In this document: one piece after another, positions 41 to 12,515 of the stretch | Layout: each line of letters opens with the position of its first letter | How positions within the stretch are numbered: the stretch's first letter is position 1 | Origin: a virus | Lineage: Duplodnaviria; Caudoviricetes | Length of the DNA stretch: 24,255 nt | Virus record (IMG/VR): IMGVR_UViG_3300030095_003304 | Location: 1 to 24,255 of that record | Strand: one strand, 5' to 3' | The notes under the pieces: model-generated | Told to the model about the DNA's origin: nothing | What the model saw: the letters and a program-made list of their open reading frames with translations, nothing else | Database searches by the model: none | Translations under genes and position numbers: made by a program

Positions 41-341
41 TTAGTCAACCATCGGAGCAAGCGTGTAAGCCCAAGTCCTATAGTCCCCCACTATGAGTTG
101 TAAAAATACGGGTAGGCATCGAGGAACGAGATAGTCGTAGGAATACGGGTGTCCCTAATGCTTAGAGGTTGGATAGCCCTGATGATGCCATGCAAGCTAG
201 CCATAAAATCTTATTAACGGAGTGTATTGACTTAACTACCTCCACTTTCGTAAACCGTTGATATTAGCCCATGGGGCGAAGCTGTGTCTACGCAACAGGA
301 GCACCCACGTATATAGAAGCCTCGCAGGAATATATTTTTTT
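41..341 (+). ncRNA. Putative structured ncRNA A (unknown class)
   Basis: No credible ORF. Stems: GGCATC 115-120/GATGCC 184-189; TATTAACGG-AGTG 212-224/CACT..CCGTTGATA 243-263 (one U-G pair); several small hairpins. Shares CGGAGCAAG and AGCCCAAGTC with 4361-4393. Ends in T7 at 335-341. Confidence 0.5.
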
Positions 342-510
342 ATAGGGTGGTGGATGTATATACATATCTGAGTAGCAGACGTTTGCTGACCGCCCCCACC
401 CCTGTCGAAAAAATGTTCACTTGCGTGGATCTCATGCGGTTTGCCTGGCAATTGCGGCGCAGCTTCACGCGTGTGGGATTGTTTTTATTCTTTTTGAGTG
501 TGATACATCT

Positions 511-572
511 TGCGACCAGTTTATGTGACTAGGTTCTTGCGACCAGGTTCTGTGGCCAGCTTATGCGGCCTA
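511..572. repeat. Five degenerate direct repeats, consensus TGYGRCYAG, period 13-14 bp
   Basis: TGCGACCAG 511, TGTGACTAG 524, TGCGACCAG 538, TGTGGCCAG 551, TGCGGCCTA 564, followed by an AT-rich tract at 583-611. Confidence 0.75.
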
Positions 573-582
573 TCCTAGGTAG

Positions 583-644
583 ATAAAAAAAGTTAAGATT
601 TATTTAAAAAAGGTGTTGACACGTAGCAATCTACTCAGGTAATG
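583..644 (+). promoter_or_regulatory. Probable early promoter with AT-rich UP element
   Basis: TTGACA at 616-621 preceded by A/T tracts, directly upstream of the first early ORF. The -10 is weak (GGTAAT 638-643). Confidence 0.5.
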
Positions 645-701
645 TTTGTGAATCGCAAGCAAATCAGTTAAGCGAAACCTAAACTAAACAAAGAAAAACA
701 A

Positions 702-860
702 ATGGACAAAGTAACAAAGAAAGACCTCGAAGACATGATAATGGATCTATTGATGGCAAGGGGCTATCTCGACTCGAAAGGCAAGGGATTTAAACAGAAA
801 GGTCTTGAGCGGCTCGACGATCTTTACCTCCAGTTGAATAAGCTAAAGAATAGCCTATAA
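702..860 (+). CDS. Small hypothetical early protein (52 aa, MDKVTKKDLEDMIMDLLMARG...), not in ORF track
   Basis: ATG 702 to TAA 860 read by hand, preceded by the same A/C-rich leader as neighbouring genes. Confidence 0.75.
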   Translation: MDKVTKKDLEDMIMDLLMARGYLDSKGKGFKQKGLERLDDLYLQLNKLKNSL

Positions 861-874
861 AGAGCAAACCCTTC

Positions 875-937
875 AAACCTTGCCCGCCTTGTCTTTGACT
901 CGTGCGGGTTTTGGGGTGCCTAAAGATGGGCACAAAC
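875..937 (+). promoter_or_regulatory. Intergenic double-hairpin RNA element, copy 1
   Basis: ACCTTGC..GCGGGTTTTGGG, then stem GTGCCT-AAAGAT-GGGCAC-AAAC; homologous to 1601-1666. Confidence 0.6.
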
Positions 938-959
938 TTAAACCTAAATATATAAACAA

Positions 960-1148
960 ATGAAAATTGAAGTAACTAAAGAAGCCGCTGTAAAATTAAT
1001 CGGTGACGATTCAAAGACTTGGCGCGATTTTACGCAAACTGAGCTTGCAGAAACGACACTTTACCACGGGCACGGGGTGAACATTACAGTAATTCACAAT
1101 TACATAGGTGAAATTACTCAGTATTACATTACAGACATTAACGCATAA
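960..1148 (+). CDS. Hypothetical early protein (62 aa)
   Basis: ATG with A/C leader; compact gene array. Confidence 0.8.
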   Translation: MKIEVTKEAAVKLIGDDSKTWRDFTQTELAETTLYHGHGVNITVIHNYIGEITQYYITDINA

Positions 1149-1170
1149 ACCATAAACTAAATATATAAAC

Positions 1171-1362
1171 ATGAAAACAGGCGACGAACTCAACGAAATG
1201 TATGACGAAATGATAGAACGCGGCTTATGCACGTTCAAAGAAATTGAACTTGTAACGAGCATTAACGGCTATAACGAGGGCGCATTAAATGACATTGTCT
1301 ATGTGCGCACGGGATACGTGACGCTCGATCAGTATATTGAATACGACGACATTCAAAAATAA
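1171..1362 (+). CDS. Hypothetical early protein (63 aa)
   Basis: ATG with AACCATAAAC-type leader; protein-like acidic composition. Confidence 0.8.
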   Translation: MKTGDELNEMYDEMIERGLCTFKEIELVTSINGYNEGALNDIVYVRTGYVTLDQYIEYDDIQK

Positions 1363-1382
1363 TTACAAACCATAAACGAAAC

Positions 1383-1586
1383 ATGAAAATAGAAAAAGCA
1401 TATCAAATAATAAACGACCTGGGCGCAGCAGTAACGAAAGCAAGCGGCATAGAGGAAAGCGCGGTCTTTGTTGGCCTAGCAACCGTAATTAAATGCAAGG
1501 CAGAGACACCTCGCGAGGTGATCGAAGCCTCGGAAATAGTAAAGGCAGATATGTTAAATTACATGCTTGCCTTGCCTAAAGCCTAG
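1383..1586 (+). CDS. Hypothetical early protein (67 aa)
   Basis: ATG with AACCATAAAC-type leader. Confidence 0.8.
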   Translation: MKIEKAYQIINDLGAAVTKASGIEESAVFVGLATVIKCKAETPREVIEASEIVKADMLNYMLALPKA

Positions 1587-1600
1587 CAAAGCAAAGAAGC

Positions 1601-1666
1601 GACCTTGCGCCCTGCGTTCCCTATACGGGGCGCGGGGTTTCGGGGTAGGTAAAGACACCTACAAAC
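1601..1666 (+). promoter_or_regulatory. Intergenic double-hairpin RNA element, copy 2
   Basis: GACCTTGCGCCC..GGGCGCGGGGTT long stem, then GTAGGT-AAAGAC-ACCTAC-AAAC. Confidence 0.6.
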
Positions 1667-1730
1667 AAACAAAACGCCCTTAAGGGGCAATTACACGCCA
1701 TTAAACGGCATTCAAACCAATAAACAAAAC

Positions 1731-1913
1731 ATGAAAAAGAGCATCCAATATTATATTGCACAGGCCGACATTGCGCACGACCTTTACAGCAAAGCTAAGG
1801 GTTCTTATGAATCCACCTGGATGGGAGCCGCCAAGGGCTTTCAAACTCAAATAGCAGACGCAGCTCTATTTGCTAAATGTAAAGAGAAGGCGGCGGCAAT
1901 CCTTGCAAAGTAA
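1731..1913 (+). CDS. Hypothetical early protein (60 aa)
   Basis: ATG with A/C leader. Confidence 0.75.
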   Translation: MKKSIQYYIAQADIAHDLYSKAKGSYESTWMGAAKGFQTQIADAALFAKCKEKAAAILAK

Positions 1914-1935
1914 CCATCAAACCAATAAACAAACC

Positions 1936-2154
1936 ATGAAAATAACAACAGAACGAAAAGGAACTAGCCTCACGAATGTTTACCACATAAGCGCAACTTG
2001 CTTGCTGCGGCACACCGTGGGCAAACCAATAGCAACGCTAATCAGCAAGGGCATTGCATGGGAAGTGCGCGAGCCTTGCCTTGCCTTTCATCTATTAAGA
2101 ATGGGAAGGCTATTGCCGGCTCGCTTGTTTCCTCATATGGATGCAACGAAATAG
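1936..2154 (+). CDS. Hypothetical early protein (72 aa; start revised from 1870)
   Basis: ATG 1936 follows AACCAATAAACAAACC; the upstream extension overlaps the previous gene. Confidence 0.7.
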   Translation: MKITTERKGTSLTNVYHISATCLLRHTVGKPIATLISKGIAWEVREPCLAFHLLRMGRLLPARLFPHMDATK

Positions 2155-2183
2155 AAACTTAACTGCAAACCAACAAACAAACT

Positions 2184-2603
2184 ATGAAAACAAAAAAACT
2201 ATTATTCGCCCTAGCAATGGGCTTAGTCTCGCACCTGTCCGTCAATGCGTCTGAGATAGTCGCAGCAACCTTAATCCTGGAGGCGGGGGGAGAGTATACA
2301 ACGGGCTCAATGGAGGCCGTAAACGAAGTAATACGCAACCGTGCTGCAAAGCGCAAGCTTACGACCAGGCAAGTGTGCTTACAGCGAAAGCAATTTAGCT
2401 GCTGGGATAGCGGAAAGATCGACCAGTTACTTGCCAAAGCAAAGAGGCATCCGCGCTTTAGCGAGGCCTTAGCCATTGTAAACGGGGCTTTGACCAATTA
2501 TACGGGCGGGGCTGATCACTATCACGCAGACTATTGTAATCCTTACTGGGCAAGCTCATTAAAAAAGACTTGCACTATCGGAAAGCATCTCTTTTATAAG
2601 TAA
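2184..2603 (+). CDS. SleB/Hydrolase_2-like cell wall hydrolase (lytic transglycosylase) with N-terminal signal peptide
   Basis: Motifs TLILEAGGE (catalytic Glu), AVNEVIRNR, QFSCW, GADHYH, PYWA, IGKHLFY; N-terminus MKTKKLLFALAMGLVSHLSVNA. Confidence 0.88.
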   Translation: MKTKKLLFALAMGLVSHLSVNASEIVAATLILEAGGEYTTGSMEAVNEVIRNRAAKRKLTTRQVCLQRKQFSCWDSGKIDQLLAKAKRHPRFSEALAIVNGALTNYTGGADHYHADYCNPYWASSLKKTCTIGKHLFYK

Positions 2604-2633
2604 ATCTAACCATAAACAAACCATAAACAAACC

Positions 2634-2945
2634 ATGAATAAACTAACAAAACAATTCTTTGACGCTAACAGAAGCGCAATGTTTCACGGGCATCCGCAAG
2701 TTATGACAATAGCTTACACGAAACAAAACAAGGCGGGGGAACGCAAGGCGTTGCGCTACCTTTCAAGGTGTTTTCGTATTGATGCGAGCAGGGTTGCCGA
2801 TTGGGTAGATGTATCCAGCGATCAAATTGAACGGCTTAAGGCGGCAACTAAGCGTTTAAAAAGCGTTCAAGGCTTTGCCGTTCTAACCAACCCAACGGGA
2901 AATTTTGAAGATTGGAGTGTCGAGCTTATCGACGGGCGAATCTAA
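2634..2945 (+). CDS. Hypothetical protein (103 aa)
   Basis: ATG after a tandemly duplicated AACCATAAACA leader. Confidence 0.8.
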   Translation: MNKLTKQFFDANRSAMFHGHPQVMTIAYTKQNKAGERKALRYLSRCFRIDASRVADWVDVSSDQIERLKAATKRLKSVQGFAVLTNPTGNFEDWSVELIDGRI

Positions 2946-2967
2946 CCACACAAACCATAAACAAACC

Positions 2968-3186
2968 ATGAAAACAAAACACTATATGTCTACCGTTACA
3001 ATCCGCAACGGGGAATACGAAACACTAACTAATTACTGCTTCAAATCAGCCGACCGAAAGTCAGCAGAAAAGGAAGTAACGGAAGCCTTTGACATAGGGG
3101 GCGATGACTGGGAGCAACAAGCAGAGTTGTATAGCTTGGTAGAAGTAACCGAAGAGGAGTATGCCGTCCTAAGCAAATTTATTTAA
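2968..3186 (+). CDS. Hypothetical protein (72 aa; start revised from 2905)
   Basis: ATG 2968 after AACCATAAACAAACC. Confidence 0.8.
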   Translation: MKTKHYMSTVTIRNGEYETLTNYCFKSADRKSAEKEVTEAFDIGGDDWEQQAELYSLVEVTEEEYAVLSKFI

Positions 3187-3196
3187 CCTACAAACC

Positions 3197-3325
3197 ATGA
3201 AAATACATAAACCTAACAAGCTAGTCAAGACAGAGAAGCAAGAGGAGAGCGCGTTTATCGTAGCCGCTTGCATCGCCATAGCATCCATACTGCTAATTGT
3301 AACCGTAATTGTAGAGAACCTATAA
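3197..3325 (+). CDS. Small membrane protein (42 aa), not in ORF track
   Basis: MKIHKPNKLVKTEKQEESAFIVAACIAIASILLIVTVIVENL; one hydrophobic helix; fills the gap between two genes. Confidence 0.7.
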   Translation: MKIHKPNKLVKTEKQEESAFIVAACIAIASILLIVTVIVENL

Positions 3326-3328
3326 CCC

Positions 3329-3520
3329 ATGTATAAAATAATAATAAGTTATATAATCGCTTCGGCCTTTGCGCTGGGCTTGCTAAATCACGCCGTAAAC
3401 AAAGCACAAGACAACATTGAGACGCTTGCGGAGGTGCTAGTGCATCACGCGGACACGTTAGAAGACCACAGGGGTGTCTTGCTGCAAATGATTGACGATC
3501 TAACCATTACGCCCATGTAA
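3329..3520 (+). CDS. Small protein with N-terminal membrane anchor and coiled-coil-like tail (63 aa)
   Basis: Hydrophobic IIISYIIASAFALGLL followed by an amphipathic helix. Confidence 0.75.
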   Translation: MYKIIISYIIASAFALGLLNHAVNKAQDNIETLAEVLVHHADTLEDHRGVLLQMIDDLTITPM

Positions 3521-3524
3521 GCAA

Positions 3525-3707
3525 ATGAGAGCAATAGACACAGCAGGAACGCAAAGCAAAGTTTCAAGTTGCATGGGCTTCATAGCCTCTGGAGCAGCAC
3601 GAGACGCATACCGTAGGCTTTTAACAGCAAGCACGGTAGGAGAGAGCAAGGGAGAGCAACGCAAGTCTCCTTTTAGTAAAACAACAAAAGAGAAAGTAAA
3701 GAAGTAA
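3525..3707 (+). CDS. Hypothetical protein (60 aa)
   Basis: Tightly packed; its stop overlaps the next start (TAATG). Confidence 0.65.
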   Translation: MRAIDTAGTQSKVSSCMGFIASGAARDAYRRLLTASTVGESKGEQRKSPFSKTTKEKVKK

Positions 3708-3976
3708 TGACAGGAAGTATGATAGCAAGCGCAGTCCGATACATGGAAAGCATAAAAGACAAAGTGCCGCCAGCAGAAGAAGAGGTTATTACTGTAAAGC
3801 AGAAAAGACCTGGCACGCCACATCTCAAGACCTTAGGTCTCGACCCGCACAAGATGGTCAAGGCTGTGGATAAGCTCAAGGCAAAGGGGCTAGAGGTAAA
3901 TGATGCTTGCGAGCAAGTCGGCATGACTAGGTCTCAATACTATAAAACCAAAAAAGGAATAACAAACAGAAAATGA
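3707..3976 (+). CDS. Putative helix-turn-helix DNA-binding protein (89 aa)
   Basis: C-terminal GLEVNDACEQVGMTRSQYYK matches the HTH pattern (A-x3-G-x-T/S-x3-Y). Confidence 0.65.
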   Translation: MTGSMIASAVRYMESIKDKVPPAEEEVITVKQKRPGTPHLKTLGLDPHKMVKAVDKLKAKGLEVNDACEQVGMTRSQYYKTKKGITNRK

Positions 3977-4167
3977 GAACAATACAACAATACCAAAAAG
4001 ACCATCCGCAACTATCAGAGGAGCAAGTTCACTCTGCCTATCATATAACAGAGATTGATGCGCCAGAGTTTAGCGTGAGCGGCTTCATGCTCATTGCCCC
4101 AGGTCGGTGTCTCGCCATCCATGAAAACGGCAATATCTTCCCTTTACGGCTCAAGGAGAGCTACTAG
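3973..4167 (+). CDS. Hypothetical protein (64 aa)
   Basis: ATGA overlap with the previous stop. Confidence 0.7.
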   Translation: MRTIQQYQKDHPQLSEEQVHSAYHITEIDAPEFSVSGFMLIAPGRCLAIHENGNIFPLRLKESY

Positions 4168-4201
4168 AGAAGGGGAGTAAGGGGCTGTGATATAATACCG
4201 C

Positions 4202-4230
4202 TTGACAAGTTTCCAAAACTTGTTTACTAA
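4202..4230 (+). promoter_or_regulatory. Sigma70-type promoter with overlapping operator-like inverted repeat
   Basis: TTGACA 4202-4207, 17 bp, TACTAA 4225-4230; ACAAGTTT-cca-AAACTTGT at 4205-4223. Confidence 0.6.
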
Positions 4231-4239
4231 ATTAAATCA

Positions 4240-4343
4240 TAGCAGAAATGCTACCGTGTAGTGACGGATCAGATCCTTTCCCCGCTTGTCCTCAAGCAAC
4301 TTTAAGCCTCTCTTCTAGCACTACATGGAAGAGGGGCTTTTTT
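4240..4343 (+). ncRNA. Structured leader or small RNA ending in an intrinsic terminator (attenuator-like)
   Basis: Hairpins TAGCA-GAAA-TGCTA, CCGT-GTAGTG-ACGG and GCTTG-TCCT-CAAGC precede a terminator whose loop is complementary to hairpin 2. Confidence 0.6.
4304..4343 (+). terminator. Rho-independent terminator
   Basis: 14-bp stem AAGCCTCTCTTCTA/TGGAAGAGGGGCTT, 8-nt loop, T run to 4343. Confidence 0.8.
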
Positions 4344-4349
4344 ATGCCC

Positions 4350-4672
4350 ATACAGTCTAGCGGAGCAAGTGGCCTCACAGGTTAGCCCAAGTCTGCACAA
4401 CGGAACCCGAAGCGTAGCTTCTAGGTTCTAGTGGTTGCTAGGTTTGACAGAGATACCGACCTGGCGTAACAGGTGGCTCCTAACGGAGCGTGAACACCGT
4501 CCCGTAGCTTATACAGCACTTACCACAGCCAAGCGGGACGACATGAAAGAGCGTCAGACTCATACGATTTGAGACAAGACAGCAGGATATGGTTCATTCG
4601 TAATGGGTGAACCATGTCCAAACGCCAAGAGCTACACCGATTTGATTGAGACCAAGGAACCAAAGTTTTTTT
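4350..4672 (+). ncRNA. Putative structured ncRNA B (paralog of 41-341)
   Basis: ORF-free. Stems: GAACC-GAAGC/GCTTC-GGTTC 4403-4428; ACCTG/CAGGT 4459-4474; GCTCC/GGAGC 4476-4489; CGTCCCG 4498-4504/CGGGACG 4534-4540; 15-bp stem 4585-4619 whose three non-Watson-Crick pairs are all U-G on the + strand. Ends in T7 at 4666-4672. Confidence 0.65.
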
Positions 4673-4692
4673 AGAAACAAGGACGATTCTTC

Positions 4693-4721
4693 TTGACCAT
4701 CCAAATACCTTTCCCTACATC
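4693..4721 (+). promoter_or_regulatory. Possible promoter for the replication module
   Basis: TTGACC, 17 bp, TACATC upstream of ATG 4750. Confidence 0.35.
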
Positions 4722-4749
4722 TTACCAATACCGTAACCAAAACAAAACT

Positions 4750-5511
4750 ATGAACCTAAAAACAAATACTAAAACTGCCCTCATTGATCTTGAACTGATC
4801 TCTTACTCTCATGCAGCTAAGGCTGAATCAACTGGCACAGGTCTAAAAAGCCTTGTCGAGATGGTAGAGTTTACCATACACAGTGTGGTCTCTGCTTGCC
4901 GCGCACAAGAGCATTACCTAGTGGTGTCTGGACGCAACAACTTCCGTAAGGTTCTGTATCCAGACTACAAAGCAGGGAGACGCGAGAAGCCACCTCTTTA
5001 TGTTCCATTGATGGACAAGCTTGAGGAGTTAAATAATCACAGGTGGTGCAAGCACGACCAGTTAGAAGCGGATGATTTACTTGGCATCATGCTGACGAAC
5101 GGAAGGGTTAAAAACCCAATCCTTTGTAGCATAGATAAAGACTTACTTGGTGTCCCAGGTTGGCACTACAACTGGAACAAAGATGACTGGCCTCGTGGTG
5201 TTACACAAGCGGAGGCAGACTTTCATTGGTTGGTTCAACTTCTCATGGGAGATTCAACCGACAACATTGAGGGGATGAAGGGGATTGGTATTGCCAAGGC
5301 TCAGAAGTTAGCCTCTGCCTATTGTGAAAGGATGGGAACACCACCTGCACCAATCCCTGCCGCAAAAGAAATTTACGAATCGGAAGGTTTTGCCCTTGAC
5401 GCATATATAAAGTGTCTCATGCTCATCTCTATCTGGAGGTCACCGATGCCACCAGAGCTTTTAGAAAACGAACTTATCTTGGAGGTGTCAAAGACCATCC
5501 CAAGTTTATAA
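4750..5511 (+). CDS. 5'-3' exonuclease, T7 gp6/FEN-like (253 aa; start revised from 4693)
   Basis: ALID, NFRKVLYPDYKAGR, EADDLLG, SIDKDL and H3TH motif GDSTDNIEGMKGIGIAKA. Confidence 0.92.
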   Translation: MNLKTNTKTALIDLELISYSHAAKAESTGTGLKSLVEMVEFTIHSVVSACRAQEHYLVVSGRNNFRKVLYPDYKAGRREKPPLYVPLMDKLEELNNHRWCKHDQLEADDLLGIMLTNGRVKNPILCSIDKDLLGVPGWHYNWNKDDWPRGVTQAEADFHWLVQLLMGDSTDNIEGMKGIGIAKAQKLASAYCERMGTPPAPIPAAKEIYESEGFALDAYIKCLMLISIWRSPMPPELLENELILEVSKTIPSL

Positions 5512-5531
5512 ACCATAAACCAAACATAAAC

Positions 5532-5756
5532 ATGAGATCAGAAAAACAAAAAGATAGCACAACAAAATACAAGGCTTCACGCAAGAGGTTTAAAGACCTA
5601 ACATTTGATGAGAAAGTTAAATGTAAGGATTTTTGGAATAGACCAGTTGACCCAGATGTTTCCAGAGCCTACAGTTTTCTTAGCCGTCAGAAGCAGAAGA
5701 GAGAGAAGGCTAAAAACAAAGCCGTTGCCGCCATCATGCAAATGCGTGGCATTTAA
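5532..5756 (+). CDS. Basic hypothetical protein (74 aa; start revised from 5412)
   Basis: ATG after AACCATAAACCAAACATAAAC; K/R-rich. Confidence 0.75.
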   Translation: MRSEKQKDSTTKYKASRKRFKDLTFDEKVKCKDFWNRPVDPDVSRAYSFLSRQKQKREKAKNKAVAAIMQMRGI

Positions 5757-5786
5757 TAATAAACCAAACCAAACATAAAACTAAAC

Positions 5787-6101
5787 ATGAAACAAGACAC
5801 ACACAGAACACCAAAGCACGAACGCACAGAACTGGAGCAAGGCTTCAGAGACAAAGCTGCAAACAACTTCCACATCTCTAGGAAGTGCGACAACACTTAC
5901 TCCGAAGCTTTATACTTCGGTCAGTATATAGCCAACAAATACGCGGCAATGAGCGTTCGCACCTCACACCGATATGGCTTTATGCACAACATGACCAAGG
6001 AGCATGACGAATTTATGCCTGAGCTAAAGGACGAAAGCTACGCCAATAAACTTCTTAGGGGCTATAAAGCTCTTGAAGAGATGAGTAAAGATTCACTATA
6101 A
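5787..6101 (+). CDS. Hypothetical protein (104 aa)
   Basis: ATG with A/C leader. Confidence 0.8.
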   Translation: MKQDTHRTPKHERTELEQGFRDKAANNFHISRKCDNTYSEALYFGQYIANKYAAMSVRTSHRYGFMHNMTKEHDEFMPELKDESYANKLLRGYKALEEMSKDSL

Positions 6102-6124
6102 CCAAACCATAAACTAAACAGAAC

Positions 6125-6505
6125 ATGATTATTAAAACAGCAACCTACCCTTACGGCCCCGCCAAACACTTGGACGGGGACACACTTGTCCAACGCCTAC
6201 AAGTTGTCGCAGGACAGCAACGCTTCGTCGATGACTACGTTGGCGCACTATGTGACGGAGATGAATACTGGATTTCAGAGCGCGTCCCAGACAAACCCAA
6301 GAAGCGCACAGGGGATCAAATCCTTACGTGGATGGAGGAGAGTGGCATTGACATGGAGTTTGATTATGACGTAGATATGGCCTTTGGTTCTATCGTTTTA
6401 TACAACAAACACGGTCAATCCCTAGTGACTTACCCTTACGGTAAAGATTGCTTCCGTGAGGCGGCAGAGTTCGTGATGGATCAAGAGGAACGCGAAGACA
6501 GCTAG
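6125..6505 (+). CDS. Hypothetical protein (126 aa) abutting the helicase
   Basis: ATG with A/C leader; stop 1 nt before the dnaB start. Confidence 0.8.
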   Translation: MIIKTATYPYGPAKHLDGDTLVQRLQVVAGQQRFVDDYVGALCDGDEYWISERVPDKPKKRTGDQILTWMEESGIDMEFDYDVDMAFGSIVLYNKHGQSLVTYPYGKDCFREAAEFVMDQEEREDS

Positions 6506-6506
6506 T

Positions 6507-7844
6507 ATGCCTACCGTTAAAAATTCACATCCGCACTCACAAGAGTCGGAGACCGTTGTTCTTGCGTCCTGTCTTCTGTCTGAAGATGGTTCCATTTACG
6601 ACGAGGTGTCACAGGTTGTTCAACCTTCTGACTTCTATGTAGCTCGCAACTCCACAATCTTCTCTACTATGGGGCAGATTGTGGGGAAGGGGTTGGAGTT
6701 ATCAGACATCACACTACTGGAACAGCTACGCTCCGATGGCAACGAGAAGGAGATTGGTGGTATCAGCACCATCTATACAATTCAAGAAGCCTGTGAGACA
6801 GCAACCCACGCCAAGTATGCCGCCAACATAGTTAAGGAGAAGTCTAAGCTTCGCCAGACCATCCGTCATTGTAGGCTTGCCATTGAGGAAGCAGAGGAAG
6901 GAGAGGAAGAAGCCGACTCCGTTACGTCTAGGCTAGAAGCCTCCTTACAGTCCCTACAGGACGTTGATGATGGTAAGGGGGACGGGAGTATCAGAACTGC
7001 TGCCGAAGCTCTCAGAGAGGACTACAAGGCTATGGTGAACGGAACCTATGAGGTGTCTGCCATGCCCACTCGCATCGCACAAGTAGATGAGAAACTTAGC
7101 TGTGGTGGCGTAGCCAACGGAGAGGTGATGGTGATTGCCGCGCCTACGTCCTGTGGTAAGACTGCCCTTGCTCTGAACATTGTCTTGCAGAACGCGGTGA
7201 CGCACCACATACCAGGTCTTTACTTCTCCTTTGAGATGCAAGCTAAGTCTTTGGCTAACCGTATGATTCAAACCTGTGCCGCTATACCACTTAAGCGGTT
7301 GCAAGATGGGATGATGAAACCAGAACACCAGAAGCGTGTATGGGAAGCAACGGACAAGATGGCAGAGGCTCCCATCTTCACCAACCACTACGTCAAGAGT
7401 GTGGATGAGTTACGTGCCAAGGCTCGTATGTATAAGCGTAAGCACAAGATTGAGTGGATTGTCATAGACTACCTTCAGCTTGTGCCTTGGGATCGTAAGA
7501 TGAAAAAGAACGACGGCATAGCTGAGGTCTCACACCAAGTGAAACTTATGGCGATGGAGTTGGACGTTCCCGTCTTCCTGCTAGCACAAGTCAATCGTGA
7601 GGGAGCCAAGCGTGAGTCTGGTCTTACATTGTATGACCTCAAGGATTCTGGTGACATTGAAAATGACTCCGACATCATCTTACTTCTGTGGCCTGACGGC
7701 AAGGATGTAGACGAGGCTAGGAGAGCAGACGCAGAGCATGGGTCTTACGTTTCATTGAAGTATAACATAGCCAAGCAGCGTGAAGGTTCGCGTGATGTGA
7801 AAGGTAAGTTCATCTTTAAGAACCACATAGGACGTTTCCATTGA
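6507..7844 (+). CDS. dnaB: Replicative DnaB-family helicase with N-terminal domain
   Basis: PHSQESETVVLASCL N-domain, Walker A APTSCGKT, FSFEM, IVIDYLQL, LAQVNR, DLKDSGDIENDSD, AKQREG. Confidence 0.96.
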   Translation: MPTVKNSHPHSQESETVVLASCLLSEDGSIYDEVSQVVQPSDFYVARNSTIFSTMGQIVGKGLELSDITLLEQLRSDGNEKEIGGISTIYTIQEACETATHAKYAANIVKEKSKLRQTIRHCRLAIEEAEEGEEEADSVTSRLEASLQSLQDVDDGKGDGSIRTAAEALREDYKAMVNGTYEVSAMPTRIAQVDEKLSCGGVANGEVMVIAAPTSCGKTALALNIVLQNAVTHHIPGLYFSFEMQAKSLANRMIQTCAAIPLKRLQDGMMKPEHQKRVWEATDKMAEAPIFTNHYVKSVDELRAKARMYKRKHKIEWIVIDYLQLVPWDRKMKKNDGIAEVSHQVKLMAMELDVPVFLLAQVNREGAKRESGLTLYDLKDSGDIENDSDIILLLWPDGKDVDEARRADAEHGSYVSLKYNIAKQREGSRDVKGKFIFKNHIGRFH

Positions 7845-8026
7845 TGCCGTGTTACAGAATTACATACACTCGTCGAGATATGCCCTCACCCTGTGGTTCT
7901 ATCAAAACAGCACACACCCAAGAAGAAGCAATTAAATGCTTGACTAATGGTAGCAAGACTAAAGGATACAAACTAAAGAAAACGAACGTTCCAATCACAA
8001 TTACTAAGATAACAGAACTAAACTAA
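7844..8026 (+). CDS. Small hypothetical protein (60 aa)
   Basis: TGATG stop/start overlap with dnaB. Confidence 0.7.
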   Translation: MPCYRITYTRRDMPSPCGSIKTAHTQEEAIKCLTNGSKTKGYKLKKTNVPITITKITELN

Positions 8027-8034
8027 AACGACAG

Positions 8035-9180
8035 ATGACATGGCATCACAATCAAACAAACATAAGCTCAACACCTTCCACCTCTTCGCAGGAGCAGGAG
8101 GTGGCATTCTCGCTGACCTCTTACTTGGACACAATCCAATCGGAGCGTGTGAAATTGAACCCTACCCAAGAGATGTTCTCCTCGCCAGACAACGAGACGG
8201 ACACTTGCCAAACTTCCCAATCTGGGACGATGTATGCACCCTCAACGGAACACCCTGGAGAGGATCAGTTGATGTTCTTTGCGGAGGATTCCCCTGCCAA
8301 GACATCAGTGCGGCGGGTAAAGGAGCAGGAATTACTGGAGAGCGTTCAAAGCTATGGAAGGAATATGCGAGACTCATTGGCGAAATGCAACCTAGATTTG
8401 TCTTTGCCGAAAACTCACCTTTGCTTCGCACTAGGGGACTTGGAGTTGTCCTCGAAGACTTGGCCTCGTTGGGGTATAATGCTCGATGGGGAATTATCGG
8501 AGCTAGGTCTGTCGGTGCGCCCCATAAAAGAGACAGGATGTGGGTTCTTGCTTCCGACTCCAGATGCAAGCGAGCGAGGCCCATGCAAGACGTTCAACCC
8601 AAAGGCAAAGAGTCAGTCTGGGAGGACGTTACAAACACTAGCGAGTTGCGATCCGATGGGGAAGATATGGCCTACACCAACTTGCCAAGAGACGGAGCAT
8701 CCAGATGCGACACTGACTCAGACTGGTCGGAGATTATCAAAGAACGGCAGGACGAGTCACAGCTTGAATCTAGCGGATACAGTGAAGAGATGGCCTACGC
8801 CAAGGAGTTGCAGTGCAATGGCAGCAACGATCACACCAGAGTCAGCGCACAATCCCAAGAGATTTCCAAATCTGGAAACGGTGGTAGGTCAAGCAACCTG
8901 GCCTGCTCCTTCTGGCACACAGACCCCGCAAGTATATCTTACACCACAAGCCAACGAAGACGCTGCGGGAACACCAGCAGGGAAGATGCAGAAGATGTTG
9001 GGGAACTCAGAGGTGGTGAGAGGGAAGACCCCAGAGGAATGGAAGAAGGGGACTTTGAACCCCTCGTGGGTCGAGTGGCTAATGGGGTGGCCAATAAGGT
9101 GGACAGACTTAAAGCCATTGGTAACGGACAAGTTCCGCAATGTGCAGCCGTGGCATTCAACATTCTCTCAGAAGGACTAA
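8035..9180 (+). CDS. C5 methyltransferase beta-like chain in an overlapping frame (TRD-like PTP repeats and motif IX); true start may be internal
   Basis: 381 codons open over the other frame; LPTP/WPTP/WPTP/WPAP/LTP repeats; LNPSWVEWLMGWPIRWT resembles motif IX (L-x-P-x-E-x3-L-[QM]-G-F-P-x2-[WY]). Confidence 0.8.
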   Translation: MTWHHNQTNISSTPSTSSQEQEVAFSLTSYLDTIQSERVKLNPTQEMFSSPDNETDTCQTSQSGTMYAPSTEHPGEDQLMFFAEDSPAKTSVRRVKEQELLESVQSYGRNMRDSLAKCNLDLSLPKTHLCFALGDLELSSKTWPRWGIMLDGELSELGLSVRPIKETGCGFLLPTPDASERGPCKTFNPKAKSQSGRTLQTLASCDPMGKIWPTPTCQETEHPDATLTQTGRRLSKNGRTSHSLNLADTVKRWPTPRSCSAMAATITPESAHNPKRFPNLETVVGQATWPAPSGTQTPQVYLTPQANEDAAGTPAGKMQKMLGNSEVVRGKTPEEWKKGTLNPSWVEWLMGWPIRWTDLKPLVTDKFRNVQPWHSTFSQKD

Positions 9181-9185
9181 TCTAA
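8040..9185 (+). CDS. C5 cytosine DNA methyltransferase, alpha-like chain (motifs I-VIII and X)
   Basis: HLFAGAGG (I), CEIEP (II), WDDV (III), GGFPCQDIS (IV), FAENS (VI), PHKRDRMW (VIII), RLKAIGNGQVP (X); motif IX not seen in this frame. Confidence 0.92.
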   Translation: MASQSNKHKLNTFHLFAGAGGGILADLLLGHNPIGACEIEPYPRDVLLARQRDGHLPNFPIWDDVCTLNGTPWRGSVDVLCGGFPCQDISAAGKGAGITGERSKLWKEYARLIGEMQPRFVFAENSPLLRTRGLGVVLEDLASLGYNARWGIIGARSVGAPHKRDRMWVLASDSRCKRARPMQDVQPKGKESVWEDVTNTSELRSDGEDMAYTNLPRDGASRCDTDSDWSEIIKERQDESQLESSGYSEEMAYAKELQCNGSNDHTRVSAQSQEISKSGNGGRSSNLACSFWHTDPASISYTTSQRRRCGNTSREDAEDVGELRGGEREDPRGMEEGDFEPLVGRVANGVANKVDRLKAIGNGQVPQCAAVAFNILSEGLI

Positions 9186-9199
9186 TCACTAAAAGAACT

Positions 9200-9445
9200 A
9201 TGACAACAGACCTAGACGAAGCACGACAATATGCAGACACAATGCTTGAAGCCTTGGACGTAATGGGGAGGGCAATGTATTTTTGCTTGAACCATCCCAA
9301 CTCTTCAGAGTTCAAAGCACACCGCAAACTTCTCATCGGAGCGCACGAACGTATGGGTAAGGACACCACCCACTTTCTAGCACAGATAGACGAGCCAGAC
9401 CTTCCCTACGAGCCAACCGAAGAAGAGTTATCACAGCATGGCTAG
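9200..9445 (+). CDS. Hypothetical protein (81 aa; start revised from 9140)
   Basis: ATG 9200 after an A-rich leader just downstream of the MTase stops. Confidence 0.75.
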   Translation: MTTDLDEARQYADTMLEALDVMGRAMYFCLNHPNSSEFKAHRKLLIGAHERMGKDTTHFLAQIDEPDLPYEPTEEELSQHG

Positions 9446-9890
9446 GGGGGAAATCAATCCAGTCTTAGGCATGACGGAAGGTAAGTTCCGCACCATGATT
9501 AAGTCTGCCCTCAGACCTTGCTGGCGCAACTCGTCCCGCAAGACCTTCATCCAGTCCGTTCGTAAGCGCGGCATCAACCCAGCTACAGGTAGAGAACGCT
9601 TCGTAGTAGTCTGCGTAGACTGCGGCAAGGAGATGGGTATATCAGAGAAGGAGAGGCGCACAAAGATTGACGGAACCCTGGAGAAGCGAGCCAAGAGTGT
9701 GTATGAGATTGACCACGTAGATGGCATCACACCCTTCACAGATGTTCAAACCCTAGAAACTTTAACCCCACACTTCAGAGATATGATCTACGGCAAACAA
9801 GAGGTTGTGTGTGTGGCCTGTCACAAGGTTCGCACAGCCAATCAAAGAAAGACAAAGATAACCCTTGACACACCTAACCAACATCCATAA
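9438..9890 (+). CDS. HNH-like Zn-binding endonuclease
   Basis: CVDC ... EIDHVDG ... VCVACHKVRT pattern. Confidence 0.75.
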   Translation: MARGEINPVLGMTEGKFRTMIKSALRPCWRNSSRKTFIQSVRKRGINPATGRERFVVVCVDCGKEMGISEKERRTKIDGTLEKRAKSVYEIDHVDGITPFTDVQTLETLTPHFRDMIYGKQEVVCVACHKVRTANQRKTKITLDTPNQHP

Positions 9891-9893
9891 AAC
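9865..9893 (+). promoter_or_regulatory. Possible internal promoter for the SSB-like gene
   Basis: TTGACA 9865-9870, 17 bp, TAAAAC. Confidence 0.4.
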
Positions 9894-9924
9894 CTTAACT
9901 AACATCAATAACCAATACAATATT

Positions 9925-10647
9925 ATGAGTAGAACAAGAAACACATCAACTGGGGGTGGCTCGTCCAACCCTGCCACTAAATTCTTAGAGTGGGACACGC
10001 AGTCTGGCGACTGGAAATACTGGGACAAAGAAGCAAGCACAGAGAAGCACCTGCCCATCTCGACAGCTTTCATTGTCTTAGATCAACTCAACACAGTTAA
10101 AGGTTTCTCTGAGGCCAAACAAACTGGTCTATGGTCTAACGAAGTTCGTGGAATCGGTGACAAGCTAACCGTTCGTAACAAGGACGGCATGGTTGCTACT
10201 GGCACATGGTCAGACGTTAAGGCTACGCAAGGAGCCAAGTTCACCAAGTCTATCTATGCTATGGCTAAGACAGGCTCAGAGGACTACGAGCTAATCAACT
10301 TCCAAGTTAAGGGTGCTGCTCTTACAGCCTGGATTGAGTTTGTTGATGGCGTAGGTGGTGACGGCGGTCTATACAACGACACAGTTGTTTCTATCAAGGA
10401 AGCAACAGACGAGAAGAAGGGTGCTGTGAAGTTCAAGAAGCCTCTCTTCGCTGTGGTTAGCAACGCCCTGTCCGACGAAGCTGCCGCACGTGCAGACCAC
10501 TACGACAACGTCCTACAGGACTACCTCGACGACTACCTTGGCTACGCCAAAGAGCCAGACTCAACGGAAGCTGGTAACAGCGGTTCGGATGACTTCGCAT
10601 CTGAGGCAGTTGCACCAGAGCCAGAGTTAGTTGAAGCCCCGTTTTAA
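9925..10647 (+). CDS. Putative single-stranded DNA-binding protein (240 aa; start revised from 9865)
   Basis: Aromatic, beta-rich body and acidic flexible tail ending ELVEAPF; located in the replication module. Confidence 0.65.
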   Translation: MSRTRNTSTGGGSSNPATKFLEWDTQSGDWKYWDKEASTEKHLPISTAFIVLDQLNTVKGFSEAKQTGLWSNEVRGIGDKLTVRNKDGMVATGTWSDVKATQGAKFTKSIYAMAKTGSEDYELINFQVKGAALTAWIEFVDGVGGDGGLYNDTVVSIKEATDEKKGAVKFKKPLFAVVSNALSDEAAARADHYDNVLQDYLDDYLGYAKEPDSTEAGNSGSDDFASEAVAPEPELVEAPF

Positions 10648-10726
10648 TATAGCCAACCCTTGTCCTAACTAAACCCCAAGACGCATGGCGGGGGAGACGC
10701 AACTCTCCCCTGCTTGCCACAATGAT

Positions 10727-11119
10727 ATGACAGAGATCAAAGACACTAATCCAAAAGACAGAGTTGGCATACGCAAAGCCCCAATGTCTGGTCTACCAGC
10801 ACCAGTTCTTATGGAATGTGGCTTGGTTAAATTACACGGAGACTTGAAGTATGGTGCTTACAACTGGCGTGAAGCTGGCGTTAGGGTATCAGTTTATTAC
10901 GACGCTGTATGGCGGCATTTGACCGCTTGGTATGAGGGCGAAGACTTAGACCCAGACTCTGGAGAGCATCACATAGCTCACGCTATGACAGGGCTAGCAG
11001 TCCTTCGTGACTCTCAAATGTTTGGTAACTGCGTTGATGACAGACCAATCTCACATAAACCAGGATGGGTGCAAGACATGAACAAACGTGCCTCCGCAAT
11101 GATTGATAAATCTAAATAA
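10727..11119 (+). CDS. DUF5664-like dATP/dGTP diphosphohydrolase domain protein (start revised from 10685)
   Basis: TNPKDRVG-K-PM, G-x2-KYG-x-YNWR, YYDA-x2-RH, GEDLDPDSGEHHIAHA signature. Confidence 0.82.
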   Translation: MTEIKDTNPKDRVGIRKAPMSGLPAPVLMECGLVKLHGDLKYGAYNWREAGVRVSVYYDAVWRHLTAWYEGEDLDPDSGEHHIAHAMTGLAVLRDSQMFGNCVDDRPISHKPGWVQDMNKRASAMIDKSK

Positions 11120-11121
11120 CT

Positions 11122-11379
11122 ATGAACGACAAAGCACTAACTAAATACCGCCAGGTGACGGGAGCTTGCACCAGATTCATCGAACGCCACCAAGACAAAG
11201 AGCTACTGGAAGACGAAGCCCAGACCCTCATCAATGACAACAAGGTTAGCAGATCGGAAAGCGACTGGCAAGTAATCAAAGACTTTCAAGACGAGTGCCG
11301 CCGCACCGTCTACAAATGCACCAAGAAAGGTTTAATCGAACCAGCCACAGAATACGTTCCAACCCACCCAACACTATGA
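11122..11379 (+). CDS. Hypothetical protein (85 aa)
   Basis: Starts 2 nt after the previous stop. Confidence 0.75.
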   Translation: MNDKALTKYRQVTGACTRFIERHQDKELLEDEAQTLINDNKVSRSESDWQVIKDFQDECRRTVYKCTKKGLIEPATEYVPTHPTL

Positions 11380-11606
11380 ACTACACCTATATGCTCAATA
11401 TGGACAACGAGAAGGCTGAGTCCTGCGATGTTGTCGTCAAGTTTACTGCCAATGATTCATCAGAGTTTGAGGGGTTTACCTCCATCATCTCTGAGCCACC
11501 CCTATACTCCGACGACCTAGCCTACCTAGAAGAGTGGGTGATACAGGGCAGGGAGAGATGGGAACCTACGGGAACCTTTAGCCAGACAAACCGCGAGCGT
11601 ATGTAG
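11376..11606 (+). CDS. Acidic hypothetical protein (76 aa; start revised from 11295)
   Basis: ATGA overlap with the previous stop at 11376-11379. Confidence 0.72.
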   Translation: MNYTYMLNMDNEKAESCDVVVKFTANDSSEFEGFTSIISEPPLYSDDLAYLEEWVIQGRERWEPTGTFSQTNRERM

Positions 11607-11634
11607 CTCACAAACCCAAACCAATACTACTAAT

Positions 11635-12318
11635 ATGCCTAAGAAAAACACAGTCCTTATTATCGGTGACACGCATTGCCCAGCGATGCACAAAGACTAC
11701 ATCAAGTTCTTAAAAAAGATAGAGAAGAAGCACACGTGTAACAGGGTTGTTCACATTGGTGACTTAGTAGATTGGAACTCCATCTCCTACCACGAGAAAG
11801 ACCCATCCATGCCCAGTGCAGAGGATGAGTTTGCGGAGGCATTTAAGCAGGTTAGGAAGCTACACAAAGCCTTTCCATCCGTAGACTACCTAAAGGGTAA
11901 CCATAGTGACCTGCCGTCCCGTAAGGCTAAGACCATTGGCATACCAGAGCATTTGATGAAAGACTTCAAGTCTCTGTGGCAACTAGAAGGTTGGACTATC
12001 CACCCTCGCTACCACGATCTTCTCATTGATGATGTCATCTACCGTCACGGAGACAAGGGTAAGGGTGGACAACAAGCTGCATATAAGAATGCCGTAGCTG
12101 AGTTCAACTCTCTCGTCCAAGGACACCTACACGCACAGGCTGGCCTCGTATATCACGCCAACCAACATGAGTGTGTCTTCGGTATGCAAGTAGGATGTGG
12201 CGTAGAACATGACCACCCGTCTATGAACTACGGAAGAGTGTATGCCGCCAAACCAATCGTTGGCTGTGGTGTTGTCTACAGTTCCAAGGTTGCTTTCTTT
12301 GAACCAATGTTTCTATAA
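11635..12318 (+). CDS. Calcineurin-like metallophosphoesterase
   Basis: All five motifs: GDTH, GDLVD, GNH, HGD, GHLH. Confidence 0.92.
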   Translation: MPKKNTVLIIGDTHCPAMHKDYIKFLKKIEKKHTCNRVVHIGDLVDWNSISYHEKDPSMPSAEDEFAEAFKQVRKLHKAFPSVDYLKGNHSDLPSRKAKTIGIPEHLMKDFKSLWQLEGWTIHPRYHDLLIDDVIYRHGDKGKGGQQAAYKNAVAEFNSLVQGHLHAQAGLVYHANQHECVFGMQVGCGVEHDHPSMNYGRVYAAKPIVGCGVVYSSKVAFFEPMFL

Positions 12319-12320
12319 CT

Positions 12321-12515
12321 ATGATTAAACTTACATACACCAACACAATACCAACCCTCGACACCATTGAACACGCAGAGATTGAGTTTCAATTACCACA
12401 CATGGCAAACTTCACGGAGGCTTGTCGTGGTCTAGCCTACTGCGCTGGGTTTGCACCAGACTCTATCGACGAATACATGATCGACCCACATAAAACAGCC
12501 TACAGGGACGAGTAA
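12321..12515 (+). CDS. Hypothetical protein (64 aa)
   Basis: Tightly packed after the phosphoesterase. Confidence 0.7.
   Translation: MIKLTYTNTIPTLDTIEHAEIEFQLPHMANFTEACRGLAYCAGFAPDSIDEYMIDPHKTAYRDE

Follow-up and report, generated by a model that had tools for sequence, protein, structure and literature searches.

Two paralogous copies of a predicted, previously unnamed structured RNA with a covarying pseudoknot core in a marine phage genome

What is encoded in two regions of a phage genome that hold no long open reading frame (ORF)? The window analyzed in this study is the 24,255-nucleotide (nt) linear virus record IMGVR_UViG_3300030095_003304 (Caudoviricetes), rated 73% complete. An initial annotation, made from the letters alone, had read positions 41-341 and 4350-4672 as two paralogous structured non-coding RNAs of unrecognised class. 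The two motifs behind this reading were found in both regions, CGGAGCAAG at 53-61 and 4361-4369 and AGCCCAAGTC at 68-77 and 4384-4393, and the combined motif pattern has two matches in the window versus none in 100 dinucleotide shuffles. Outside the motifs the two regions are unrelated, as had been stated, with no significant BLAST match between them (best 12/13 nt, E 0.13). The shorter elements are also in place: AGTC at 43-46 and 4354-4357, TTGACT at 227-232, AGACT at 4556-4560, and an extended -10 element (TGCTATAAT, 26-34) upstream of the first region. The central reading was upheld. The comparisons described below point to two paralogous structured phage RNAs on the + strand, here called RNA A and RNA B, which share a covarying core and belong to a class that is not in Rfam. 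With members of about 250-370 nt, a covarying pseudoknot core, and a fold and a family that are both new, this is predicted to be a previously unnamed class of phage structured RNA.

Do A and B belong to one family? Homologues were collected from IMG/VR with the motif pattern, as the initial annotation had proposed. This gave 118 loci, among which the true homologues are 17 distinct A-like and 34 distinct B-like sequences; these counts include the window copies, and the remaining loci (about half of the 118) are chance matches. Protein-anchored and looser pattern scans contributed divergent members, while most matches of the looser scans were due to chance. In total, the stored loci hold 105 distinct core sequences in 12 single-linkage clusters (80% identity). 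The carriers are marine podovirus-like phages, and the RNA is present in phage contigs and not in the chromosomes searched. A joint covariance model of A and B (R2), which had also been proposed, finds two members held out of its training set, L447 and L301, with 27 bits (E ~0.001) against a background of at most 16 bits. It scores the training members A and B with 52.5 bits (164-245) and 78 bits (4430-4529), respectively. A descriptor without the original motifs matches the window at exactly 165 and 4431. This descriptor was built from these same sequences and gave 255 matches in 2.1 Mb versus 24 in one shuffle; 38 of its 112 distinct matches have neither independent motif and are ascribed to chance. 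Thus, the joint model and the motif-blind descriptor indicate that the family is real and that A and B, as distant subfamilies, are members of one structured RNA family on the evidence of their sequences.

The constant core of the family consists, in this order, of NNGGU-U, a stem (P4), an A-rich linker, an optional hairpin in the B types (P5), and a stem (P6) with YACCNN in its loop. NNGGU and the ACCNN of the P6 loop are predicted to form a pseudoknot of five base pairs (bp). In A, the strands are GAGGU (165-169) and ACCUC (238-242), both on the + strand like all features below unless stated otherwise. P4 of A is 170-177/196-203 with a CUGA..CAA loop, the linker lies at 204-208, and P6 is 212-224/243-263. 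In B, GUGGU (4431-4435) pairs with ACCAC (4522-4526), which lies in the 17-nt loop of P6 (4499-4539). P4 of B is 4436-4444/4458-4466 with a UUGA loop, and is followed by the linker UAACA (4467-4471) and by P5 (4472-4498), which has a GAA bulge on its 3′ side. The P4 loop begins with YUGA in 99 of 105 cores, and 7 of 8 P4 pairs of B are altered on both sides in alignment A4. One of the held-out members, L447, has a P4 loop of A type and flanks of B type. The sequences of P6 differ, while its pairing is present in every cluster inspected. P6 was left out of the covariance models because MAFFT misaligns the P4 and P6 registers and the divergent 5′ domains.

The pseudoknot is paired in 24 of 24 representatives (taking the best of one or two candidate ACC), and in 105/105 distinct cores from 12/12 clusters with six dinucleotide combinations, and none of 100000 permutations is equally good. 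The GGU/ACC anchors of the core were themselves required by the counting script. In the first anchoring, a second GGT had been taken in 9 of 112 cores and a wrong ACC in 10; since the anchor rules were then tuned by hand, the 105/105 count is not blind. An independent check is provided by a plain MAFFT alignment of seven A-type and eight B-type cores. In this alignment, every pseudoknot cell is paired (100%), each of the two variable pairs is altered on both strands, and the covariation score is 0.52, versus 0.17 in shuffled and at most 0.18 in slid alignments. A pattern that takes no account of the pseudoknot retrieved members with the double change from UAGGU/ACCUA to UGGGU/ACCCA, together with a G-U intermediate. 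Over the family, the variable pairs occur as GU/AC, GU/AU, UA/UA, GA/UC, UC/GA, UU/AA, UG/CA, and UG/UA.

It was revealed that the two motifs of the initial annotation are the two strands of a single 5′ hairpin, in which the internal loop GCAA/CCAAG separates P1 (NNNGA/UCNNN) from P2 and one A of P2 is bulged. In A, this domain spans 51-81 (P1, 51-56/76-81; GCAA, 57-60; CCAAG, 71-75), and anchored pairing across the representatives places P2 at 61-62/69-70 with A68 bulged. In B, it spans 4360-4396 (P1, 4360-4364/4392-4396) with the same loop and a P2 with the bulged A4384. Anchored pairing recovers the hairpin in 18 of 22 representatives, and compensatory changes are seen: P2 is found as GC/GC, GU/GC, GG/CC, or GA/UC, and three of the five P1 pairs are altered on both sides in alignment A3. 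The 5′ domain appears to be exchangeable, because the other four representatives and L153 have different ones. L616 has the window-type 5′ domain joined to the next domain of L153. In B, the hairpin is followed by a variable hairpin, P3 (4402-4429, alignment A3), which is missing from the largest B cluster.

At the other end, the family has a 3′ element of the GAA(G)CUGUGUC type. In A it lies at 267-288, as a GCCC/GGGC hairpin with GAAGCUGUGUC, and its GCGAAGCTGTGT is invariant in alignment A2. Its counterpart in B is a 15-bp hairpin (4585-4619) that ends in GAACCAUGUCC. B has, in addition, a small CUCA/UGAG hairpin (4559-4575) with the first copy of an internal direct repeat. The second copy (UGA-NN-GAG, 4638-4652) marks the 3′ end and was found in 8 of 10 B-slot representatives by pattern, plus L447 by eye. 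As a side observation, the two copies of this repeat (window 4565-4575 and 4638-4652) covary within each B-type RNA, with the variants AUUUGA, AAAUGA, UUUUGA, and UCUUGA. The whole predicted transcripts are 41-334 for A, whose 3′ end is uncertain (290-334), and 4352-4652 for B, which would begin with ACAGU right behind the U-run of a terminator.

Some further details of the initial annotation were modified. The letters of the proposed AGTC/GACT helix are present, but its conservation as a helix was not borne out: the AGTCT/AGACT helix of B is complete in 6 of 15 aligned homologues (54 of 74 cells paired), the AGTCAA/TTGACT helix of A fails in L011, L295, L308, and L427, and the GACT sites of A and B are non-equivalent positions. 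The pairings of the 5′ leader with ACU and of AAG with CUU are each complete in 9 of 15. Likewise, the AGGAA-N4-6-T7 with which both regions were said to end does occur at 326-341 and 4655-4672, but is not a conserved 3′ signal of the family. AGGAA-N4-6-T6 follows 21 of 26 A-type 3′ tails but just 12 of 64 B-type tails, and the T run at 335-341 belongs to a DNA motif that is found also in relatives without the RNA there.

Is this an RNA or a DNA element? In 18 representatives, the + strand has 16 tetraloops of the GNRA, UNCG, or UAAC type and the − strand has 2, and G-U pairs are numerous in the helices. Such strand-biased loops and G-U pairs support an RNA, and a single-stranded DNA hairpin element was rejected.

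The two regions had been called the only long ORF-free ones, but a third structured RNA, a separate small RNA of about 105 nt, is predicted at 4240-4345 just upstream of B (folding z score −4.8). Its hairpin loop at 4255-4264 is complementary to the loop of an intrinsic terminator at 4304-4345. This loop-loop complementarity covaries, with 4-11 bp across 56 terminator-type upstream regions (6-11 bp in most). The window scan (E up to 5) gave no Rfam match for it. This small RNA is a second unnamed structured RNA family.

How might the RNAs be expressed? Of the 94 distinct upstream regions, a terminator stands at the end of 56 and a -10 element at the end of 36. For promoter-type members, 17 of 37 distinct upstream regions show a gap of 6 nt between the -10 hexamer and an NNAGU leader, and this spacing suggests that the leader is the start site. 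For A, the extended -10 promoter element at 26-34 and the leader spacing predict a start at about 41. Host sigma-70 polymerase would transcribe the RNAs. A would use its own extended -10 promoter; B would be made by read-through past the small RNA ahead of it, by processing at that point, or, in some relatives, from a B promoter. A -35-like TTGAC follows 61 of 64 B-type tails, ahead of the next gene.

The HK022 put RNAs are transcribed from two put sites and are about one quarter of the size of the present RNA. Could A and B be cis-acting antitermination RNAs of this kind, which would sit at the heads of early or middle operons and modify RNA polymerase? The likeness is that two paralogues on the + strand head long co-directional gene runs, and two copies are found also in G007 and one further contig. 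However, the present RNA is about four times as large, pseudoknotted, and accessory, and the genes downstream usually have the -35-like element of their own. The A copy is missing in most relatives despite the same gene order, and G006 (with terminal repeats, but rated 48% complete) has a single copy. Antitermination is thus considered unlikely. A ligand-sensing leader (riboswitch) or another cis element for the next gene would agree with a pseudoknot core with conserved joining regions, and with B lying about 100 nt ahead of the exonuclease gene. It is nevertheless highly improbable in view of downstream genes that are unrelated or absent and of the promoter-like element that usually stands between.

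Is the RNA linked to a particular gene or genome position? The slot of A was compared in 80 related loci: the RNA is there in 23, the slot is empty in 42 and holds other inserts in 8, and 7 loci do not reach far enough to judge. At the exonuclease gene, the 5′ motif is present in 30 of 38 loci with 2 kb upstream (19 further loci are too short). The number of copies per phage is 0-2. Many close relatives have both copies, G007 and one distant contig (L616/L617) have two, and G006 and G005 have one. The gene after the RNA may be an exonuclease, a Sak-like annealing protein, an HNH nuclease, or a small unknown protein gene, or there is none. In relatives, the A and B slots or nearby cassettes are also used by tRNA-like RNAs, a tRNA-Met with DUF3800-IX, and ribozymes. 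By comparison of these loci, the RNA is accessory and patchy and has no fixed neighbor gene.

Several of these inserts are observations in their own right. In L141, the exonuclease gene is closely preceded by a tRNA-like RNA (2204-2322, +) whose anticodon loop measures 54 nt. L517 has a 64-nt RNA (5621-5684, +) that matches the tRNA-like domain of tmRNA only and has a CCA end followed by a terminator. The early region of L578 has tandem RAGATH-24, twister-P1-like, and hammerhead type II RNAs (1339-1587, −). Other ORF-free, hairpin-rich inserts lie upstream of the exonuclease gene in L155/L156 and in the A slot of L572/L575/L577, L578, and L600; they gave no Rfam or R2 match.

The A slot adjoins the first gene of the late operon, whose terminase-small-subunit-like label is positional only and has no PHROG or Pfam support. 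The A cassette is bounded, outside the RNA, by a DNA motif (335-405, no strand) composed of a T-run, AGGG, TATATA, and a C-run. It was found in 25 of 26 A-type tails. In 42 of 80 related loci, and in phage C75C1, it stands directly beside the neighboring late gene and the RNA is missing there. The motif adjoins the first late gene throughout this phage group and is likely a late promoter or genome-end signal. This position and the conserved end motif would suit a packaging RNA like the phi29 pRNA, with the GGU/ACC pairing formed between molecules. A phi29-type pRNA would be expected in all group members, whereas the slot is empty in the 42 loci and in C75C1, and B sits among the replication genes. 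Because the majority of relatives lack the RNA at the A slot, the packaging or replication RNA suggested by the initial annotation is disfavored, and packaging is the least probable of the functions considered here.

The patchy presence at several sites and the variable 5′ domain recall HEARO or omega RNA, in which case the RNA would be selfish or mobile and would act together with an HNH nuclease. In the L292 group, an 85-amino-acid (aa) HNH gene directly follows the RNA. A constant HNH/IscB linkage is not seen, as HNH adjoins the RNA in the L292-type loci only and neither in the window nor in most clusters. In addition, the 5′ domain is a covarying hairpin rather than a free guide, and there was no HEARO match. 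A selfish RNA is very unlikely.

Does the RNA resemble a known class? The scan of the window with the Rfam 15 covariance models, which the initial annotation had also proposed, gave no match (E up to 5), and none was found for the RNA in 12 and 13 related loci (E up to 10 and 3, respectively). ARAGORN found no tRNA or tmRNA gene in the window, and BLAST of A and B against GenBank phages gave no match. RNase P RNA type A (RF00010) and the group I intron (RF00028) each matched 0/5 records at E up to 10, with positive controls in the RNase P test. The CR-I and CR-V patterns of RNase P are not in A or B, the group I J8/7 pattern was not found, and the RNA is not within a gene. The readings as a permuted group I intron, an RNase P fragment, or a raiA relative were dropped. 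Hammerhead RNAs, including permuted ones, were rejected: block C (CUGAnGA) is found in 23 of 105 cores, GAAA follows CUGA in 7 of 105, and there is no third helix. The A-type P4 has a CUGAnG..GAA-like loop reminiscent of the hammerhead, but it is closed by one stem and has no cleavage-site block, compared with the hammerheads of PMC10085705.

PMC12286853 and PMC5737381 show a likeness to GOLLD and ROOL, which are phage-borne, pseudoknotted, orphan in function, and, as in some relatives here, near tRNA-like RNAs. In GOLLD, too, the 3′ part is conserved and the 5′ part variable. However, with 250-370 nt and no Rfam match, the present RNA differs from these RNAs of about 580 and 800+ nt, and they were rejected on length (about 300 nt against a criterion of >500 nt) and on the cmscan result. 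The raiA RNA, as described in PMC12968392, is similar in size, with a compact pseudoknot core, optional peripheral stems, an A-rich asymmetric loop in the 5′ hairpin, and a likely trans action. It differs in having a conserved P1 that joins the ends and two pseudoknots, whereas this RNA has one internal pseudoknot and weak end-pairing (5-8 bp between leader and 3′ part by eye in some members, not covarying). The raiA model (RF03072) matched 0/5 records at E up to 10, a weak test in which neither candidate nor control passed the cut-off; cmscan was negative too. The likeness to GOLLD, ROOL, and raiA is one of kind only: orphan, pseudoknotted, and modular.

Literature searches found no published description of this RNA. 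According to PMC10690425, mining of IMG/VR 3.0 gave 8495 anonymous candidates of 29-151 nt. The family motif was not found in the readable supplements of that paper (its alignment files lay outside the search) or of PMC10085705. A fragment of this RNA may be among the anonymous candidates.

What, then, could the RNA do? Positions 41-334 and 4352-4652 probably hold a pair of paralogous phage RNA genes, each standing alone. I tentatively favor a role in trans, in which the RNA may bind a host factor as its decoy or scaffold. The RNAs are predicted to fold around the five-pair pseudoknot, and the invariant unpaired nucleotides (the GCAA/CCAAG loop, the YUGA loop, the A-rich linker, and UACC) may form a compact tertiary surface. 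This putative surface would bind a host protein or ribonucleoprotein early in infection, and the phage might benefit by counter-defense or by translation take-over. The patchy presence, the variable neighbors, the separate downstream promoters, and the exchange with tRNA-like RNAs are more readily reconciled with an accessory trans RNA than with a leader, an antiterminator, or a packaging RNA.

Several results weigh against this reading. A model built from B alone (R1) misses A-type members (best E 3.5). Both regions had been described as filled with hairpins, which stands for B (z score −4.4 versus shuffles on the + strand and −1.3 on the − strand) but not for A (+1.2 on the + strand and +1.1 on the − strand), so the predicted structure of A rests on comparative evidence alone. 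In metatranscriptomes, 10 runs recorded as RNA contain part of 4200-4750. Four of 22 listed runs were examined, as contigs without ends, strand, or level. Runs X1 and X3 have contigs over most of 9 kb, like DNA. Runs X4 and X6 have two and one short contigs, respectively, all within 4327-4652; since the runs were selected by this very region, these are a weak hint at most. Finally, the invariant nucleotides around the pseudoknot fit a catalytic core equally well.

The last point leads to the main rival, a new ribozyme class whose pseudoknot core of about 100 nt would cleave or process RNA, for example by releasing its own 5′ end just downstream of the small RNA or by cutting host or phage RNA in trans. 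It would agree with the invariant GGU/ACC, YUGA, and A-rich linker surrounding the pseudoknot, with B starting right behind the terminator of another RNA in 56 of 94 upstream regions, and with the hammerhead, twister, and RAGATH-24 RNAs of one relative near the same genome-end region. On the other hand, the core lacks the third helix and mostly block C of the hammerhead and has no match to group I or RNase P, and A-type members begin at a promoter, which makes 5′ cleavage unnecessary. In PMC10085705, ten similar candidate motifs were assayed and no cleavage was seen. I regard a ribozyme as possible but somewhat improbable. A similarly small chance is given to an extended version, in which an undescribed class of catalytic RNAs has this core as its active site, the swappable 5′ and 3′ domains set the substrate or partner, and the RNA spread in marine phages as an accessory cassette alongside tRNA/tmRNA mimics. 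Of the functions in the initial annotation, the trans-acting decoy or scaffold is tentatively preferred to the ribozyme.

Few large pseudoknotted RNAs are known from bacteria and phages, and those few act as catalysts, as sensors, or as self-assembling cages. The present RNA would add a class whose fold is its own, whose core is small and covarying, and whose peripheral domains have been swapped in nature; thus, a minimal construct is already defined. Its occurrence in 0, 1, or 2 copies, in cassettes shared with tRNA-like RNAs, points to a phage-host conflict at the RNA level in the ocean.

Which phages and hosts are involved? Relatives of the window phage were found in marine metagenomes and viromes, and their major capsid protein is of the SU10 type. 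The nearest GenBank record is phage C75C1, with 47% identity in the helicase. A GTDB scan with an exonuclease alignment gave three distant loci and no host, and no host names are attached to the helicase homologues. Marine Verrucomicrobiota and Planctomycetota are a tentative guess at the hosts. The joint model R2 had no match in 41 genomes of an unrelated phylum, which is uninformative for the host. Genes on the + strand at 702-12515 include those for a cell-wall hydrolase, an exonuclease, a DnaB helicase, a DNA methyltransferase, an HNH nuclease, and a metallophosphoesterase, and the large virion genes are on the − strand. No reverse transcriptase is among the annotated window genes; the ORFs of longer relatives were listed without an annotation scan.

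Two further observations were made in the + strand region. At 960-3330, small early ORFs lie behind repeated AAACCATAAACAAAC-like A-rich leaders and have no Shine-Dalgarno sequence. Contig joints fall between these leader repeats, which suggests gene shuffling. Two 381-aa frames at 8035-9180 and 8040-9185 overlap fully, both match DNA methyltransferase PHROGs, and the overlap is retained in L153 and L146. These overlapping-frame methyltransferases (8035-9185) resemble two-subunit C5 methyltransferases with an alternative frame.

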